Positions 566 through 62,094 are shown, counted from the stretch's first letter. The stretch is 64,000 nt of DNA from Candidatus Omnitrophota bacterium (GCA_043812495.1 JBDRMG010000016.1:2137-66136); one strand, 5' to 3'. The notes: generated by a model not told the origin, from the letters alone. Numbers and translations: made by a program.

Positions 566-1570
566 TTAAAGGACCAACATCGCATCCCCGTAGCTAAAAA
601 ATCGATATTGATTCCTGATCGCCTCCTGATAGGCGCGCTTCATAAGCGCATGTCCGGCAAAAGCCGAGACAAGCATCAGAAGCGTACTTAAAGGAAGATG
701 AAAATTGGTTAATAGGATGTCGACGAAATGGAACCGATAACCCGGATAGACAAAAAGATCTGTATTTCCTTGCAACTGTCCCGTATCGGCCACTGTTTCA
801 AGGACCCGGCAACTTGTCGTTCCCACGGCCAGAATCTTCTTTCCCTCTTTTTTGTGACGCTTGATGCGTTTAAAAGTTTCCTGGGTCATATGGTAGCGTT
901 CGGTATGCATTTTGTGTTTTGTAATATCGGTTTCTTCAACCGGTTTAAACGTCGCATAATTAATATGAAGCGTGACCTTTTGAAAAGGATGCCCCTGATT
1001 CATAAGGCGCGTGATGAGCCTTTGGGTAAAATGCAGCCCGGCTGTCGGCGCGGCCACAGATCCTTCTTTATTCGCATACACGGTTTGATAATATCGGCGG
1101 TCGATCGGTTCATCCGCTCTTTTGATATAAGGGGGCAGCGGCATATGTCCGATGCGATTCAATGCCTTGGTCAAATTCTTTTGATTAAAGCGAACCGTGT
1201 TTTTATCGATAATCTCGGCTATCAACCCATTGCCGTCAAACTGAATTTGATCATGATATTTCAATCTTCGCACAGGGCGTAACAAGGCGTGATAAGAATA
1301 CTTGTCGGCCAGCTGATTAAGAAGAAAAATCTCGACCTGCCCGCCTGTTCTTTGCTTGCGCCCTAGTAAACGGGCACAGATGACCTTGCTATCATTGAGC
1401 ACGATCATGCTTTCGGTCGGTAAATATTTTTCCAAATTCGCAAAACGGTCATGCGTTATCGTTTGCTTGTCCCGATTTAGGACTAGCAAGCGCGCTTGAT
1501 CTCTTCTTTTCAGCGGATATTGCGCAATAAGATTTTGCGGCAAATGGTAATCAAAATCTTGCAGTTTCAT
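566..1570 (-). CDS. queA: S-adenosylmethionine:tRNA ribosyltransferase-isomerase
   Basis: The ORF 566..1621 aligns along its full length to QueA (MKLQDFDYHLPQNLIAQYP, GHMPLPPYI, AAPTAGLHF, VGTTSCR, NFHLPLSTLLMLVSAFAG, RFFSYGDAML). The start is placed at the internal MKLQDF to match the QueA N-terminus. Confidence 0.9.
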   Translation of the reverse strand: MKLQDFDYHLPQNLIAQYPLKRRDQARLLVLNRDKQTITHDRFANLEKYLPTESMIVLNDSKVICARLLGRKQRTGGQVEIFLLNQLADKYSYHALLRPVRRLKYHDQIQFDGNGLIAEIIDKNTVRFNQKNLTKALNRIGHMPLPPYIKRADEPIDRRYYQTVYANKEGSVAAPTAGLHFTQRLITRLMNQGHPFQKVTLHINYATFKPVEETDITKHKMHTERYHMTQETFKRIKRHKKEGKKILAVGTTSCRVLETVADTGQLQGNTDLFVYPGYRFHFVDILLTNFHLPLSTLLMLVSAFAGHALMKRAYQEAIRNQYRFFSYGDAMLVL

Positions 1571-1610
1571 AGTTGTAGAAGTAGAAATAGTATTTATGTC
1601 TTTGCTTAAT

Positions 1611-1644
1611 CCCCCCACCACTTTTTATAAAAAAGTGGGGGGGG
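1611..1644 (-). terminator. GC-rich hairpin (CCCCCCACCACTTTTT/ATAA/AAAAGTGGGGGGGG) abutting the stop of the SpoIID-like gene and 40 nt upstream of the queA start
   Basis: The inverted repeat is visible in the sequence. There is no clear U-tract, so it may act as a terminator or attenuator. Confidence 0.4.
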
Positions 1645-2868
1645 TCAATTCGGCCTCGCACTTATGTTCTGCCCCACCTTTGGCGGGGCATCCATAAGTG
1701 CGGGCCTCATTGAAACAATGTCAACGCCGGGATAATAGAATTTTAAAATTTTATCATAGGAATACCTTTCACGAGCCATAAAATTGACGCCCCATTGGCA
1801 TAAACCGACGCCGTGCCCCCATCCTTTTCCGCTAAAATCCATATAATAGCCTTTGGGGATGGTCTGGTAATTATTGCTTTTGATGATATTGGGCCCGATG
1901 ATATCGCGAAAGGTTTTTCCCTCCATCTCTAGAGTCTTATTGTCCCTGGTTGTGATCAAGAGTTTGTCGATGCGTCCGCTTTTATTACGCTCAAGTATCT
2001 CGATATCTTTAATAAGCCAAAGAGCGTATCCCGCCGCATTCAGTTTCTCTTGAATTTCTTTTAACTGAATGTTCTTTTTCCATGAAAAATGAGGTGATTG
2101 TCTGCAATAAGGACAAACAACGCCTTTTAAACAAGGCCAATCCCCTTTCCAAAGATTGCTCGCATCTTCCGTATGCCCGGCGCAGGTGGCATGATAATAC
2201 GCAGGGATGATTTTCCCCTGATAGGTCATGACCAAACCTTTTGTGCGGTTGACAGCAATATTTGTTCGATACCTCTCGGCATGACGTCCGCCATAAACTT
2301 GAGAATAGATATCGCTTCGCACATCAAATGTCTTATTCTTATTAATGTTTTTCTGATAAAGCGCATAGGTTCTGGCCGCCACGGCCTGGGCCTTCATGGC
2401 CTCCATGGGCCAGCGATGAGAAATCTCATGATAAAGAACGCCTTTGATATAATCTTCCAAATCAACGGTATTGACAACGATACCCTGATGGTCTTGCGTT
2501 CTAATAATACTCAGGGAACCTCTAAATCGTCGACGATTGACATAAATAGACGCGTCTTTGGTCGGCTGAATGTTAATCCAATCCAAAGAATATTCTTTTT
2601 CGGCAATCATGATGCTTTTCGATGTAAATTCAACCGTAGAGTCCTTCAGGGCCTTTCTCTCTTCGCTCAGAATATTATTGTGCTGGTCCGTTAACTTATA
2701 TCCGCCCTGGATCGCGCAATCAAAATTCGATATATCCGTTAAGATGGCTACCCTGATCACAGAGGCCGCGGTATTCGTCAGCCCATAGACCGATCGTTGA
2801 GCCAAAGGAATTTGCAACAGTAGACCCAGAGCACATAAAATTGATAATTTTCGCATGCACTTGGTCAT
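1645..2868 (-). CDS. SpoIID/LytB-domain protein with N-terminal signal peptide
   Basis: The 407-aa ORF has a hydrophobic N-terminus and the SpoIID-family core (AMKAQAVAARTYAL, YHATCAGHTE, WGHGVGLCQWG). Confidence 0.75.
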   Translation of the reverse strand: MTKCMRKLSILCALGLLLQIPLAQRSVYGLTNTAASVIRVAILTDISNFDCAIQGGYKLTDQHNNILSEERKALKDSTVEFTSKSIMIAEKEYSLDWINIQPTKDASIYVNRRRFRGSLSIIRTQDHQGIVVNTVDLEDYIKGVLYHEISHRWPMEAMKAQAVAARTYALYQKNINKNKTFDVRSDIYSQVYGGRHAERYRTNIAVNRTKGLVMTYQGKIIPAYYHATCAGHTEDASNLWKGDWPCLKGVVCPYCRQSPHFSWKKNIQLKEIQEKLNAAGYALWLIKDIEILERNKSGRIDKLLITTRDNKTLEMEGKTFRDIIGPNIIKSNNYQTIPKGYYMDFSGKGWGHGVGLCQWGVNFMARERYSYDKILKFYYPGVDIVSMRPALMDAPPKVGQNISARPN

Positions 2869-19269: not shown

Positions 19270-19500
19270 TGACGGCCGAATCCTTCGACCTAGCTCAGGA
19301 TGTCCTTCGACTTGGCTCAGGATCATTCGAAGGATCATGAGCAACGTCGAATGAGAAGGATGGTGAGCCCGTTCGACTCACTTCGTCCTTCGAGAGGCTC
19401 AGGACTTGGCCTGAGCAAGGCGAAGCCGCGTCGAAGGCCTTCGTTCGCTCAGGGTCCTGAGTTTATCGAAGGACGAAAGTCGAACCATTGACCCCGAGCT
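19270..19500. repeat. Palindrome-rich repeat region in the purA-serA spacer. It reiterates CCTTCGA/TCGAAGG and GCTCAGG/CCTGAGC units.
   Basis: At least 7 copies of TCGAAGG or its complement and 5 copies of CTCAGG(A)/CCTGAGC within ~230 bp. It begins with the 19-nt near-direct repeat CCTTCGAC(C/T)T(A/G)GCTCAGGAT. Confidence 0.6.
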
Positions 19501-22997: not shown

Positions 22998-23020
22998 TGA
23001 CTTTCCCTCCTTTAATGAGT

Positions 23021-23059
23021 GCATTGGCTTACGCGACCGAAGGGAGCGTAAGTCAATGC
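23021..23059 (-). promoter_or_regulatory. Leader hairpin with CCGAAGG-containing loop immediately upstream of the clpP RBS
   Basis: GCATTGGCTTACGC/GACCGAAGGGA/GCGTAAGTCAATGC inverted repeat. Its counterpart is upstream of ilvC. Confidence 0.5.
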
Positions 23060-23060
23060 A

Positions 23061-23184
23061 CGAATTAAACCCCCACACCAATTTCAGTTGGAGTGCTGAG
23101 TTTATTTAGAGAATTTTTATTATGATTTAACCTCATCTTTAAATTTTCATTCACCGTGTCAAATTGGTGTGGGGGCAAATTCGG
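23061..23184. repeat. Copy A of a MITE-like composite element: 24-bp terminal inverted repeats (CGAATTAAACCCCCACACCAATTT ... AAATTGGTGTGGGGGCAAATTCGG) flanking ~76 bp of AT-rich DNA
   Basis: A perfect inverted repeat is seen directly. A second copy with the same arm sequence lies at 60607..60721. Confidence 0.7.
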
Positions 23185-23202
23185 ACAAACAACTTGCATT
23201 CA

Positions 23203-24111
23203 CTACGTTCTGCAAGTTGTGTCCTCATTTGCCCAGGTGGCTTCCTTTAATAAAAACTCGATAACTTTATTCACCATATTTTCTTGCCTCTGGATCTCAA
23301 TTTTTTCAAGCTGAGCAATTTTCTCCACAATAAAATAGACCTTCAGATCCTTTTCGGCAACCTTTTCCAAATCCTTGCGCATTTGATCTTCCTTCTTGGC
23401 TATGTCGTCTTCCTTGAGACCCTGCTGTTTCATGCGCTCTTTCGTTTCTGAGAGACGGTGTTCAAGCTGTTTCTTAACGACTGCTTGAGGAACAGTCACT
23501 TTGGTATTCTTTAACAGATGTTCGACGATCTGATTTTCGACGTCAAAACGATTTTGCCGATCCTTGTCCACTTCCATTTGTCTTTTGAGAGAGTCTTTGA
23601 ACGCATCAAGGCTCGGATATCCAAGACTTTTAGCGAAACCATCATCAACCTTGGCCTCTTTTTCCTGACCTTGTCCCTTTTTGAACATATCAAAAACTTT
23701 ATTGATTTCCTCATCTTTTACCGCGGAACTCTTTCGCGTCACCTTGATCCCTTTATAATCTTTGACAATGATATCCGGCCGAATATCAAATTTCGCCGTA
23801 AAAGAAATAATGCCGTCCTTAAAAGACACGTCTTGAATTTCCGGTAGATCAATCGGTAATAACTGCTCTTTTTCGACACCCTCCTGATAAACTTCGGGGA
23901 TAACCTTCTGAATGGTTTCTTCCTGAGCCAGCTTTCCATAATGAGATTCCAGAATTTCTTTCGGAACCTTGCCCGGCCGAAATCCTTTGACCTTGGCTTC
24001 TTTGCCGATTTCTTTATAGACATCATCCATGGCTTGAGTCACGCGGTCTTTCGGAACCTCGATTTTCATCTCTCGTCTTGTTGCATCAATTTTTTTGACT
24101 TCCACTTTCAT
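23203..24111 (-). CDS. tig: Trigger factor, short form lacking the FKBP-type PPIase domain
   Basis: N-terminal ribosome-binding domain with the GFRPGKVP signature joined directly to a TF C-terminal helical domain. It is 302 aa against the usual ~430 aa, and is located upstream of clpP. Confidence 0.8.
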   Translation of the reverse strand: MKVEVKKIDATRREMKIEVPKDRVTQAMDDVYKEIGKEAKVKGFRPGKVPKEILESHYGKLAQEETIQKVIPEVYQEGVEKEQLLPIDLPEIQDVSFKDGIISFTAKFDIRPDIIVKDYKGIKVTRKSSAVKDEEINKVFDMFKKGQGQEKEAKVDDGFAKSLGYPSLDAFKDSLKRQMEVDKDRQNRFDVENQIVEHLLKNTKVTVPQAVVKKQLEHRLSETKERMKQQGLKEDDIAKKEDQMRKDLEKVAEKDLKVYFIVEKIAQLEKIEIQRQENMVNKVIEFLLKEATWANEDTTCRT

Positions 24112-29745: not shown

Positions 29746-30006
29746 GGGGACCTTCTTTCTTAGAGAAAAATCGGAATAAAAAGGTTACGGATAACGGCGA
29801 GAATCTTTTTTCTTTTTATTCGAAACAAGCGTTAATTTTAGCATAGTTTAAATTGGTCGTCAACTGCTTCTAACATATACTAATAAAAGAATTTCCGACT
29901 AGATTTATAGGCTAGGAGACGTTGTTTAAAGTATTGAATTTTTCCATTGGGAAGAAGGGATGTTGATTAAAATATTAAAGTTGGCTCCGGAAATTACTTT
30001 AATACT

Positions 30007-30141
30007 TTAATCTTCGTCCCTCAAAAAACCTAATTGCGGGGATTCTGATGTATCTTCCGAAAGACCTAACAAAAGCGGCAGGTTGGCGGGAACGATTTGA
30101 AAAATAACCGGCGCAAAGCCGTCGATTTTGATGGTATGAAT
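30007..30141 (-). pseudogene. Degenerate remnant of a giant-gene 3' end (encodes ...IKIDGFAPVIFQIVPANLPLLLGLSEDTSESPQLGFLRDED*)
   Basis: About 80 percent nucleotide identity over ~113 nt to the last codons of the 2405-aa gene at 31528..31640, with higher identity at the peptide level. An in-frame TGA lies 10 codons upstream and there is no ATG. Confidence 0.7.
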
Positions 30142-59405: not shown

Positions 59406-59450
59406 TCATTTGACCGTTTATTTAGTCTTCCTCCAAGGCATCATAAATGA

Positions 59451-59540
59451 CCCCGCCGCTTTTTGCTTTTTTCTATAACAAAAAGCAAAAGGCGGGGGAA
59501 TTTATCCCGAGCCCGCCTATGATTTGATGGCGGGCGAGGG
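59451..59540 (-). terminator. Two consecutive GC-stem/AT-loop hairpins downstream of ilvC
   Basis: CCCCGCCGCTTTTTGCTTTT/ttctataac/AAAAGCAAAAGGCGGGGG, then CCCGAGCCCGCC/tatgatttgat/GGCGGGCGAGGG. Confidence 0.55.
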
Positions 59541-59543
59541 ATT

Positions 59544-60536
59544 TCAATGTTTCATCCAAGGCATCATATCTCGTAATTGACGCCCCACGTCTTCGATTTT
59601 GTGCTGGTCGGCTTCTTCGCGCCATTTGGTCAGATTGGGCCGGCCTTTTTTATTTTCGCGAATCCATTCGCGCGCAAATTTCCCTGATTGAACATCGGCA
59701 AGCATCTTTTTCATGATCTTGCGCGTCTTATCGTTGATCACTTTCTTACCGCGGGAAAAGTCTCCGTATTCCGCTGTATCCGAAACACGTTTGCGCATCC
59801 CTTGAATACCGACTTCATAGATAAGATCCGTGATTAATTTTAACTCATGCAGGCATTCAAAATAAGCGATCTCGGGCTGATAGCCGGCTTCCACAAGCGT
59901 ATCGAATCCGGCCTTGATCAATTCGCTCACGCCGCCGCAGAGAACCGCTTGCTCGCCAAAAAGATCAGTTTCTGTTTCTTCTTTGAAGGTCGTTTCGATC
60001 ACGCCAGCCCTTGTGCCGCCGATTCCTTTGGCGTAAGCCAAGGCTTTTTGCAAAGCTTTGCCCGAGGCATCCTGATGAATGGCCACTAGGCAAGGAACGC
60101 CTTTGCCTTCCTCATACTGACGACGGACCAAAGCGCCGGGACCTTTGGGCGCGATCATAAAAACATCCACATCCGCCGGAGGATCAATCTGCCCAAAGTG
60201 AATGTTAAACCCATGGGAGAACATAATGGATTTTCCGCTTTTTAAATGCCGTCGGATGGATTTCTTATAAACCATGGCCTGGATATGGTCCTGCGTGAGG
60301 ATCTGAATAATATCGGCATTCTTGGCAGCGGTATTGGCATCCACCGGATCAAAACCGTCTTGTTTGGCCATCTCATAATTGGGTGTTCCCTCAAGTTCGC
60401 TGACGATAACTTTCAAACCGCTATCGCGCAGATTCAAGGCCTGGCCGCGACCTTGAATTCCATATCCCACAATCGCAATCGTTTGATCGTTGAGAATATT
60501 CGAATCAGCATCTTTGTCATAATAAATTTTTGCCAT
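59544..60536 (-). CDS. ilvC: Ketol-acid reductoisomerase
   Basis: [11 protein letters not shown]-terminal motif and the class I KARI core, 330 aa. Confidence 0.95.
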
Positions 60537-60556
60537 AATGAAACCTCCTTCAATGA

Positions 60557-60603
60557 CGACACAACTTATGGAGTCCGAAGGACGACATAAGTTGTGCGTC
60601 GGG
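60557..60603 (-). promoter_or_regulatory. Leader hairpin with CCGAAGG-containing loop immediately upstream of the ilvC RBS
   Basis: CGACACAACTTATG/gagtccgaaggacga/CATAAGTTGTGCGTCG. It sits in the same position and has the same loop motif as the clpP leader hairpin. Confidence 0.5.
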
Positions 60604-60606
60604 ATT

Positions 60607-60721
60607 GAACCCCCACGCCAATTTTCCTGAAATACTAAAACTTAACCTAATATTGCTATTATTTTCAAACTACATATAAATATTCTCCCCACATAATAAA
60701 AATTGGTGTGGGGGTAAATTC
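60607..60721. repeat. Copy B of the MITE-like composite element (arms GAACCCCCACGCCAATTTT ... AAAATTGGTGTGGGGGTAAATTC)
   Basis: The inverted-repeat arms share their core with copy A at 23061..23184. The ~72-bp interior is AT-rich. Confidence 0.7.
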
Positions 60722-60726
60722 AGCCT

Positions 60727-60769
60727 ATGACTTAGCTCCCCCGATGATACATCGGGGGAGCTAAGTCAT
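60727..60769 (-). terminator. Perfect 19-20 bp hairpin (ATGACTTAGCTCCCCCGAT g ata c ATCGGGGGAGCTAAGTCAT) abutting the fba stop
   Basis: A perfect palindrome seen in the sequence, with no U-tract. Confidence 0.5.
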
Positions 60770-60777
60770 GGCTTCAT

Positions 60778-62094
60778 TTAATCGTCTCCCTCACCGTCTA
60801 GAACAGCTTTCGATGATTTGATGCCCAATTTAAAATCCTTGGGCTGGATAAAATCCTCAACGGTCTTCTTGGTGTCATTCACTCTCAGTTGCTTGAAGAG
60901 AAAATCGAATTTTGACTCGATCTCTTGCGCAATACCTTCTTTGATTTCTTCGGGAAGCTCCATAATCTCTCTTTTAAAAGGACCCAGGGCTTTCTTGCGT
61001 GTCTTGTAAATAAACTGATCTTCCGTCTGCCCGTCTTTCATTTCTTTAGCGCAATTCTTTTTCAACCATGCATACATCTTATCTTTGAGTTCCTTCGGAA
61101 AAATCGTGCTATCGAACATCATGTTCTGAAAGTTTGTCGCCAGATGAACTTCCAGTGTTTCGTTGTCGGGTAATTTTCCGAAAGCCGCCGGAGGCAAGGT
61201 GGACGCTCCATGCTGAACCGTTCCGCCCAAATGATAATTTTCCCGTCCATACTTTGCAAGATTTTTAAGGACATCGAAATCGACTTTGACCTGCGCAATC
61301 GAGCCATCCGGTAGAACAACGCCTCCGTGCGAGGTTCCTGTCTGAACGCTGATTTTGCTGATTCCCTCCATTCCCGGAGGAAGGCTGTCTAAGTAGCCGT
61401 CCATATAGGCCTTGAGTTCCTTAATGTTAGAATTCTTTCCGCCCACTTCGCCGATTTCACCGCCGACGGATACCACAATGCCCTCGGGCTGAACCTTGCG
61501 AATGTATTTGGTCAATTCGGCGCATACCTCAAAATTGTCTCTTTGTTGTTCCAGGATTTCCTTTCTCTCCAAATCAACAACGGTAGAGCTGTCGATATCG
61601 ATATTGAGGAAACCGGCTCCCACGGCATCGTCAATGAGATGTTTTAAACCGTTGACTTCTTTTTCGCGATCCACAGCAAACATTTTAGCATTGAGCTGAA
61701 AATGATCCCCTTGGATAAAAACAGGACCGCTGTATTCCTCTTTAATGGCGGCCGCCAGAATAACGCCCGTGTATTCCATGGGCGGTTGATCGGTGTAGCC
61801 CATTTCGGATTTGGCAATCTCAAAGATAAAGGCCCCGGCATTGTTTTTCTTGGCAACACGGAAGATCGCCCTCGCTAAATAATAGGTCAAATTTCTCAGA
61901 TTGATTGCCGGCACTGTAAAACCAGAAACTTTGCCTTCTCCTACCGCTTTGTACAAATCATGAATCGAGGCAAGAAAAATACCCTTCTCTTTAGCCATCG
62001 CTTGAATTTGATTTGTGATTTTCTGCTTTTTTTCGGCGCTCTCGGTCATGATGAGATCTTTTGCGATTTGATCAATATCCTTTTTGCTTGTCAT
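60778..62094 (-). CDS. fba: Fructose-bisphosphate aldolase, class II (long form)
   Basis: 438 aa with class II aldolase metal-binding His context (GDHFQ, TSHGG). Confidence 0.8.
   Translation of the reverse strand: MTSKKDIDQIAKDLIMTESAEKKQKITNQIQAMAKEKGIFLASIHDLYKAVGEGKVSGFTVPAINLRNLTYYLARAIFRVAKKNNAGAFIFEIAKSEMGYTDQPPMEYTGVILAAAIKEEYSGPVFIQGDHFQLNAKMFAVDREKEVNGLKHLIDDAVGAGFLNIDIDSSTVVDLERKEILEQQRDNFEVCAELTKYIRKVQPEGIVVSVGGEIGEVGGKNSNIKELKAYMDGYLDSLPPGMEGISKISVQTGTSHGGVVLPDGSIAQVKVDFDVLKNLAKYGRENYHLGGTVQHGASTLPPAAFGKLPDNETLEVHLATNFQNMMFDSTIFPKELKDKMYAWLKKNCAKEMKDGQTEDQFIYKTRKKALGPFKREIMELPEEIKEGIAQEIESKFDFLFKQLRVNDTKKTVEDFIQPKDFKLGIKSSKAVLDGEGDD

Follow-up and report, generated by a model that had tools for sequence, protein, structure and literature searches.

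A probable MITE-like non-autonomous transposon nested in a palindromic frame upstream of ilvC in a Candidatus Omnitrophota bacterium, and its relatives in several phyla

Introduction

The spacer that separates a class II aldolase gene from ilvC in a Candidatus Omnitrophota bacterium probably consists of inserted mobile DNA. The stretch analysed, hereafter the window, comprises 64,000 nucleotides (GCA_043812495.1 JBDRMG010000016.1:2137-66136); its IlvC and ClpP are 100% identical to proteins of a Candidatus Omnitrophota MAG. The most probable explanation of the palindromic structure found there (copy B) is a non-autonomous MITE-like transposon of ~105 bp, here called E, lodged within a palindromic frame, the composite being inserted DNA and not a leader specific to ilvC. 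E would be delimited by the termini 5'-CCCCCACACCAAT...ATTGGTGTGGGGG-3', which would enclose an interior of ~78 nt free in sequence, and it would insert at TNNA with a 4-bp duplication. The spacer from the aldolase gene to ilvC would thus owe the whole composite of ~230 bp to insertion, and a second composite (with copy A) lies between tig and clpP. E belongs to a family, its size is constrained, target-site duplications flank part of its copies, the corresponding sites are empty in relatives and the frame keeps a constant orientation with respect to the downstream gene.

Two copies with common termini and unrelated interiors

Copies A and B (Table 1) share the termini CCCCCACRCCAAT / ATTGGTGTGGGGG, and their interiors of 79-80 nt are unrelated and do not align with each other. 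Each arm of each copy contains the 15-mer CCCCCACRCCAATTT (23070, 23161, 60610 and 60700), which makes four occurrences in the window, whereas 0.30 are expected and none of 100 shuffles reached four. An earlier interpretation, made from the sequence alone and hereafter called the sequence-only reading, was therefore right in matching the arms of copy B to the core of the copy A arms and in describing the AT-rich interior as different. As delimited by a repeat finder, the arms of copy B (60609-60625 / 60699-60715) are 17 nt long, 73 nt apart and 94% complementary, their single mismatch being G:T on the plus strand, that is A:C on the gene-sense strand; those of copy A are 15 nt long, perfect and 76 nt apart. 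The additional bases that the same reading had included at the ends of copy B (GAA.., ..TAAATTC) belong to the flanking target and to the frame, and the true ends lie at 60610 and 60714.

With a length of 105-106 bp and no ORF confined to E, both copies have the size and the non-coding character of MITEs. Neither interior resembles any of the 144 other interiors among the matches listed; the possibility that they are tRNA remnants was rejected, as none of the other interiors is similar to them, even among those with a tRNA gene. The features make sense on the minus strand, which is the strand of ilvC and clpP. In both copies, this strand shows a stop codon and a hairpin, next the two arms around the interior, and then a hairpin whose loop is cUUCGg, followed by AAGGAGG and ATG.

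Table 1. Coordinates of E, of its frame and of comparable elements (positions refer to the window unless a locus is named; motifs of the frame are given on the gene strand)
Feature	Position	Strand	Description
ilvC start codon	60534-60536	-	ATG
ilvC Shine-Dalgarno	60544-60551	-	
Frame motif a'	60544-60556	-	UCAUUG, then Shine-Dalgarno GAAGGAGG
Hairpin H2	60555-60601	-	47 nt; leader hairpin of the sequence-only reading; stem ..CAACUUAUG / CAUAAGUUG.., loop cUUCGg
Frame motif b'	60602-60609	-	UUCAAUCC
Flanking tetranucleotide of copy B	60606-60609	+	TGAA; partner TAAA at 60715-60718
E, copy B	60610-60714	.	105 bp; terminus, interior, terminus; same termini and spacing in at least 118 other loci
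Left terminus, copy B	60610-60622	+	13 nt, CCCCCACGCCAAT; one transition relative to the family consensus CCCCCACACCAAT
Interior, copy B	60623-60701	.	79 nt, AT-rich; no sigma-70-like promoter, no Rfam match
Right (inverse) terminus, copy B	60702-60714	+	ATTGGTGTGGGGG
Frame motif b	60715-60723	-	CUGAAUUUA, including the TAAA flank; can pair with b', which lengthens the arm helix
Hairpin H1	60722-60773	-	52 nt; perfect 20-bp stem 60727-60746 / 60750-60769; begins directly past the aldolase stop
Frame motif a	60772-60780	-	UAAAUGAAG; includes the aldolase stop
Class II aldolase gene (upstream of ilvC), stop codon	60778-60780	-	
Composite A, entire	23013-23231	-	a', H2 (23019-23061), b', E, b, H1 (23184-23224), a
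E, copy A	23070-23175	.	106 bp; termini 23070-23082 and 23163-23175; flanks TAAA, CAAA
tRNA-within-tRNA nests (examples)	L001 805-905; L047 2637-2748; L069 6176-6286; L108 1455-1567		
tRNA-within-tRNA nests (further)	L112 7248-7352; L141 3661-3769; L147 785-908; others		
Second family (termini with CACCCCGTTAGA)	L135 ~1857 (-); L140 ~1395; L144 ~232		Complete pairs: L016 5273-5360, L088 6972-7070
Planctomycetota subfamily with ORF	L019 6580-6680; L014 5536-5635; L109 4892-4991; 14 further loci		L019 copy between rplV and rpsC

A family of elements spread over several phyla

One genome per species was scanned for CCCCACNCCAAT followed, after 65-95 nt, by ATTGGNGTGGGG. Both termini were found at the spacing of E in at least 118 loci of other genomes, with identical termini of 12-13 nt, a few of these loci in GC-rich genomes (L004, L007 and L011) being probable chance matches. 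Among the matches listed, the hosts are many classes of Patescibacteria, Planctomycetota (Phycisphaerae, Sedimentisphaerales and Planctomycetales), Omnitrophota, Cloacimonadota, Stahlbacteria and bins labelled Bdellovibrionales and Gammaproteobacteria, and a genome often harbours at least six loci. The start-to-start spacing of these listed matches extends from 82 to 107, with a mode at ~90 and a pile-up at 86-95, within an allowed range of 77-107. This narrow spacing inside a wider allowed range indicates that the interior is held near 78 nt.

The 13-nt termini are invariant, and pairing extends inwards by a further 2.4 bp on average, in lineage-specific sequence, versus 0.5 bp for shuffled partners. 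Among the matches listed, the interiors include one subfamily of 17 copies in Planctomycetota, one of 5 in Patescibacteria and one of 4 in Omnitrophota, besides several groups holding tRNA genes. Common internal sequence within a genome, as MITEs display, was not observed, since A and B are unrelated and 77 of the 146 listed interiors are singletons. Such unique interiors between perfect termini are untypical of MITEs and only partly explained: they result in part from ascertainment, because the scan demanded intact termini. The sequence-only reading had proposed a MITE family, and this proposal is supported by the additional loci with their identical termini, clustered spacing and drifting interiors, as well as by the target-site duplications and empty sites described below.

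Target-site duplication and the search for a transposase

Immediately outside their CCCCC/GGGGG ends, 34 of 97 copies among the matches listed carry an exact 4-bp direct repeat, versus 6.9 expected when left and right flanks are re-paired at random (2000 trials; mean 6.9, maximum 15). The enrichment is limited to length 4 and offset 0, lengths 2, 3, 5 and 6 and shifted offsets all being at chance, and only 6 flank pairs are inverted rather than direct. The duplicated tetranucleotides (TAAA, TTTA, TATA, TCAA, CTTG, TGAA and similar) have the consensus TNNA. This flanking repeat is a target-site duplication, the signature of DNA transposition by staggered cuts, and therefore argues for E being a MITE-like non-autonomous transposon. 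In the window itself, three of four bases match in the flanks of copy A as well as in those of copy B, and the latter form a degraded or uncertain target-site duplication.

In one case, L047, removal of E and of one repeat restores the intact anticodon arm of a tRNA-Gly(CCC). The flanks of the Omnitrophota copies, GAATT-TNA / E / TNAA-TTC, are compatible with an insertion into the middle, TTAA-like, of a GAATT...AATTC palindrome. As the preferred target, (R)TNNA(Y), is itself palindromic and the copies located in stable-RNA genes sit in loops, E seems to insert preferentially at the tip or centre of a palindrome.

E may be mobilised in trans by a transposase of the DDE type, for which the termini would be the binding sites. 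The sequence-only reading had offered, as an alternative to a MITE, a pair of protein-binding sites separated by a fixed distance; this is compatible with the data insofar as the termini presumably bind a transposase. Neither the window nor ~1 Mb of DNA from 150 loci yielded an autonomous copy or a transposase, and no transposase was found among the ORFs located beside solo arms, between arm pairs 130-4000 bp apart, or between CCCC...GGGG inverted pairs 600-3500 bp apart (~1 Mb of loci). Phages were rejected as vectors of E, with one match in 2.9 million viral contigs. The piggyBac elements have a TTAA target next to CCC...GGG ends. The CC(C)...(G)GG ends of E and its 4-bp T..A duplication presumably recall these elements and the IS1380 family, from which E differs in that its target is TNNA (TAAA, TTTA, TCAA, CTTG and others) and not strictly TTAA; as no transposase was found, this resemblance can serve only as a lead.

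Empty sites in relatives

The gene order lptB, tig, clpP, aminotransferase, serA is conserved in four relatives (ClpP 79-85% identical). In all four, tig and clpP overlap or are 32-62 bp apart, without hairpins or arms. Composite A (~215 bp) aligns as an insertion between ...ACCTGGG and AAGGAGGGAAAGTCAATG, the Shine-Dalgarno sequence and the start codon of the host being retained. At 23203-23231, the tig reading frame enters composite A and ends in ..WAN-EDTTCRT*, while the relatives stop a few residues past a conserved FLLKEAxW; the C-terminus of the annotated trigger factor is therefore partly derived from the insertion. E is thus a practical source of mis-called gene ends and, as an example below suggests, of contig breaks in the MAGs concerned.

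The closest relative with the aldolase-ilvC order (IlvC 87% identical) has an unrelated spacer of 163 bp with one long imperfect hairpin. This spacer (L119 2338-2500) is made of GATATCAG/CTGATATC-like repeats and may be another palindromic element at the same site. A relative at 86% (L120 1-34) shows an end of the H2 type, ...GTGCTCATTAAAAGGAGG, before ilvC; its contig stops 34 nt upstream of the gene, inside the hairpin, and repeats of this kind probably break MAG assemblies. In two further relatives, ilvC lies 19-22 bp behind pfk or ilvH. The Planctomycetota copy L019, located between rplV and rpsC, is absent from this position in three relatives, whose spacers differ; the ancestral sequence ...ATGTAAATATG... 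is deduced, and was not directly seen in them. E therefore shows the dispersed copies of a MITE and, like one, is present or absent among related genomes, with two copies in the window and with tig-clpP, aldolase-ilvC and rplV-rpsC spacers that lack it in relatives.

These comparisons also bear on the ilvC leader in which the sequence-only reading had placed copy B. The same module precedes clpP and other, unrelated genes, and it is missing before ilvC in relatives, contrary to what would be expected of a T-box, an attenuator or a riboswitch. As the spacers of relatives are devoid of the module, the structure is not a conserved ilvC leader, which is consistent with the lack of any Rfam match in the whole window at gathering thresholds and in the 261-nt spacer at E<=10, where only spurious matches to miRNA hairpins appeared. 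Scans of both spacers for sigma-70 promoters and intrinsic terminators detected nothing inside the interiors, H1 being terminator-like on the wrong strand only. A false lead is thus removed: the apparent leader is inserted mobile DNA and not a control element of branched-chain amino-acid synthesis.

Copies in stable-RNA genes and a possible coupling ORF

A complete tRNA gene is present inside 32 of 144 E copies among the matches listed, and a second scan, directed at a subfamily flanked by CTTG...TGAA, yielded 23 metagenome loci, of which 17 enclose a tRNA. In 20 of the 32 listed copies that bear a tRNA gene, the adjoining outer DNA duplicates part of the inner tRNA, in direct orientation in every case (20/20, 0 inverted). 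The site of insertion in the host tRNA gene is the D-loop, the anticodon loop, the variable loop or the T-loop, and the gene so interrupted is present in full inside E, sometimes together with a few bases of the DNA that flanks it. The inner and the interrupted tRNA have the same anticodon in at least 11 of these copies. Many of the interrupted halves have degenerated or are truncated (L001, L052/L133, L144), which argues against splicing. In copies located within tRNA and rRNA genes, the flanks are constant, CTTG...TGAA, and are not a duplication; simple cut-and-paste does not account for the tRNA nests, and we were unable to derive them from ordinary transposition. Duplication of flanking sequence into the interior was rejected as a general rule of cargo capture, as it is seen only in the copies that hold a tRNA.

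A second family, with the termini (TTCA)CACCCCGTTAGA(N)AT...AT(N)TCTAACGGGGTG, also interrupts tRNA genes and encloses an intact tRNA. Within 23S rRNA genes of Patescibacteria, E copies were found at L009 6764-6870, L077 5048-5156 and L107 2086-3994. The LSU match of L107 spans an insertion of ~1 kb that holds two tRNA genes; in L077, a 5.8S-like match precedes that of the LSU by 110 nt, and further in there is a group I intron.

In a Planctomycetota subfamily, a small ORF, MK(M)KSLSK(K/R)QFTLVWG*, crosses the right terminus and stops at the TAA of the duplicated TAAA. The ATG of the next gene follows 1-8 nt further on in 12 of 15 copies among the matches listed, and the reading frame survives indels of 9 nt. 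This ORF looks like a possible device for preserving translational coupling, for example between rplV and rpsC.

A wider interpretation would unite E and the CACCCCGTTAGA family as cross-phylum, 'expression-neutral' mini transposons with a slot of tRNA size, in which tRNA self-compensation, excisable stem-loops in rRNA and the coupling ORF of the Planctomycetota would each spare the host, tRNA capture reflecting a new mechanism of transposition or repair. An insertion that carries a full duplicate of the tRNA gene that it interrupts could enter even an essential tRNA gene, and would be self-compensating and therefore hard to lose. We put this forward tentatively, as an interpretation that is rather doubtful in its entirety.

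The outer frame

The sequence-only reading had described a composite element. The composite aspect reflects two nested things, the ~105-bp E and an outer hairpin frame specific to Omnitrophota: the element looked composite because E sits centrally in a second palindromic frame, made of two hairpins and conserved bases. On the gene strand, the order around copy B is stop codon, AAAUGAAGCC, H1, GGCUGAAUUUA, E, UUCAAUUC, H2, CUCAUU, Shine-Dalgarno and ATG. The frame is present in all 13 Omnitrophota/Stahlbacteria copies among the matches listed, with a constant orientation relative to the downstream gene, and has the consensus (U)AAAUGA(A/G)GCC, H1, GGCUGAAUUUA, E, GUUAAUUCGCAC, H2, GUGCUCAUUAAAGGAGG, 5-9 nt, ATG. 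The flanking leader hairpin of the sequence-only reading exists (60560-60596, within H2). The CCGAAGG loop motif to which that reading drew attention does occur in both window hairpins (on the plus strand, cUUCGg on the gene strand) but is incidental, other family members being devoid of it.

The stems of H1 and H2 vary from locus to locus with pairing kept, and the junction motifs are conserved. The latter are complementary to each other, AAUGAG to CUCAUU and GAAUU to AAUUC, so that the whole can adopt either a fold of three hairpins or that of a four-way junction. The folding of the composite is far stronger than that of shuffled sequences on the gene strand (z = -11.3) and on the other strand (z = -12.6). 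A small ORF that would begin with the ATG contained in the AAATGAAGCC motif was rejected, as it is not conserved, and so was coding through H2 in Omnitrophota, as the frame differs between copies A and B. At L042, the centre of the frame is occupied by a 26-nt hairpin, CCCCGCCC...GGGCGGGG, in place of E, and at two sites of the window (1570-1715 and 59441-59545) by short C-run hairpins.

Such a structure could also be a host-selected RNA whose three hairpins would form an intercistronic cassette for processing or stability, possibly with an AAUGAG/CUCAUU four-way junction, the arms acting as a recognition helix for an RNase or an RNA-binding protein and not as transposon ends; it would be kept because of what it does to the expression of the neighbouring genes. 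The conservation of the junctions beside stems that vary with pairing kept speaks for it, as do the strength of the fold (z = -11.3), the location of the module from just past the stop codon to just before the Shine-Dalgarno sequence, in the same orientation to the downstream gene in 13 of 13 listed copies, the small ORF kept in frame in the Planctomycetota subfamily and the extended ends of copies in stable-RNA genes, which mostly form G:U pairs on the sense strand. A comparison of sense and antisense folding as a test of selection on RNA gave a mixed answer: among the matches listed, H1 folds better in the sense orientation in 12 of 13 copies, whereas H2 folds better antisense in most copies, and whole composites fold equally on both strands. 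Against selection as host RNA stand its absence from the same spacers of close relatives, the 4-bp direct repeats, which indicate insertion of DNA, the A:C mismatch in the copy B arms on the mRNA strand and the lack of any matching Rfam family. An RNA of this kind, unlikely as the explanation of the module, is compatible with a mobile origin, and the two are not exclusive.

DNA inversion and RNA splicing as alternatives

Near-perfect inverted repeats at a fixed distance immediately upstream of genes would also suit a DNA switch, in which a recombinase would invert the ~79-bp interior as an invertible promoter, or paired operators would loop the DNA upstream of ilvC and clpP. In one Omnitrophota genome, the interior of L059 (1808-1913) seems reverse-complemented relative to its frame in comparison with L010 2297-2402, L066 7727-7831 and L081 7257-7362, all four having the same H1/H2 frame family; the similarity is weak (70-73%), and the apparent flip may have arisen by inversion between the termini or because E inserts in either orientation. 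Such a switch is very improbable: neither window interior holds a sigma-70-like promoter, the interiors of the copies are unrelated to one another, the inner tRNA is oriented as the interrupted host tRNA in all 20 listed cases, copies lie inside rRNA and tRNA genes, an inversion system is not expected to generate 4-bp direct repeats and no recombinase gene is found near copies A or B.

The occurrence of E in tRNA loops (D-, anticodon, variable and T-loop) and inside 23S rRNA genes would fit an intron-like intervening sequence removed from transcripts and spreading through RNA, but this can practically be discounted, since splicing would not restore the degenerate or truncated tRNA halves (L001, L052/L133, L144), no excision boundary restores the host consistently (L069), the target duplication is of DNA type, and E, which has no Rfam match, falls far short of the size of a group I or II intron.

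Possible consequences for transcripts and comparison with known elements

The absence of a sigma-70-like promoter from the interiors and the tight tig-clpP operon of relatives make it most likely that the spacer is transcribed through. Co-transcribed with the flanking genes, it would form three stable hairpins, of which the arm helix of 17-22 bp would be a likely target of RNase III, by analogy with Correia elements. Cleavage would leave an upstream mRNA that ends in H1 and an ilvC mRNA that opens with H2 and whose Shine-Dalgarno sequence is free. The host would in that case tolerate the insertion, and the stability of one mRNA might become independent of that of the other. These consequences at the RNA level are conjectural, both strands folding equally well and the arm mismatch of copy B being A:C on the mRNA strand.

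A study of the Correia MITEs of Neisseria (PMC2649163) documents binding and cleavage of their hairpins by RNase III, and reports that these elements (CREE) can be cleaved or protected by this enzyme and can affect neighbouring genes. Like E, the Correia/nemis elements are ~100-150 bp long, non-coding, intergenic and close to genes, with terminal inverted repeats and a target duplication; they are co-transcribed as a long hairpin, and E, judged from its sequence, would be likewise. They are unrelated to E in sequence, have 26-bp repeats with a conserved core and a TA duplication and are confined to Neisseria, whereas E has invariant 13-bp termini, a 4-bp TNNA duplication and a free interior of fixed length, occurs in several phyla and displays no detected promoter or IHF site.

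The intervening sequences of bacterial 23S rRNA are stem-loops of ~100 bp at helix tips, with a stem formed by inverted ends, and E copies are also found in the 23S genes of Patescibacteria (L009, L077). However, the window copies lie between protein-coding genes, and E also occurs in tRNA genes and intergenic DNA, so that the window copies do not belong to this class. REPINs and BIMEs, mobilised by RAYTs, share with E two conserved inverted units ~100 bp apart with a less conserved spacer, and the Omnitrophota frame (H1, centre, H2) resembles a BIME in its clustered, differing hairpins between genes and its conserved junction motifs. E is nevertheless not a REP or a REPIN: its arms are not self-palindromic and lack a signature of the GTAG type, no RAYT gene was seen, and single-strand transposition of the HUH/RAYT type makes no target duplication, whereas E has one of 4 bp.

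Searches of the literature for the core sequence, for bacterial tRNA introns and disrupted tRNAs in CPR, for MITEs in these phyla and for CPR rRNA insertions, together with a 2024 review of prokaryotic MITEs, found no description of E. As far as the searchable literature shows, E is a previously undescribed small mobile element. It is common to Patescibacteria, Planctomycetota and Omnitrophota, phyla in which mobile DNA and expression signals are poorly known, and offers handles on the way in which minimal genomes tolerate transposons, through insertion at helix tips of rRNA and tRNA, tRNA nests and, in one subfamily, a built-in coupling ORF.

Other palindromic modules in the window

A third hairpin module of the same frame lies on the minus strand at 1570-1715, upstream of a queA-like gene. 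It comprises CAATGAGGCC, an H1 with ..ACTTATG/CATAAGT.. and then AGGCCGAATTGA, without H2, and its centre is a 33-nt hairpin, C8ACTTTTTT-ATA-AAAAAGTGGTG6, instead of the 105-bp E. On the same strand, just downstream of ilvC (59441-59545), are a hairpin (59507-59541), AAATT, a C5GCC...GGCGGGG hairpin (59452-59499) and TCATTT; ilvC therefore has hairpin modules on both sides. Other large inverted repeats, unrelated in sequence to E, are located at 19382-19477 (24-nt arms, 48 nt apart) and 29918-30021 (26-nt arms, 14 nt apart).
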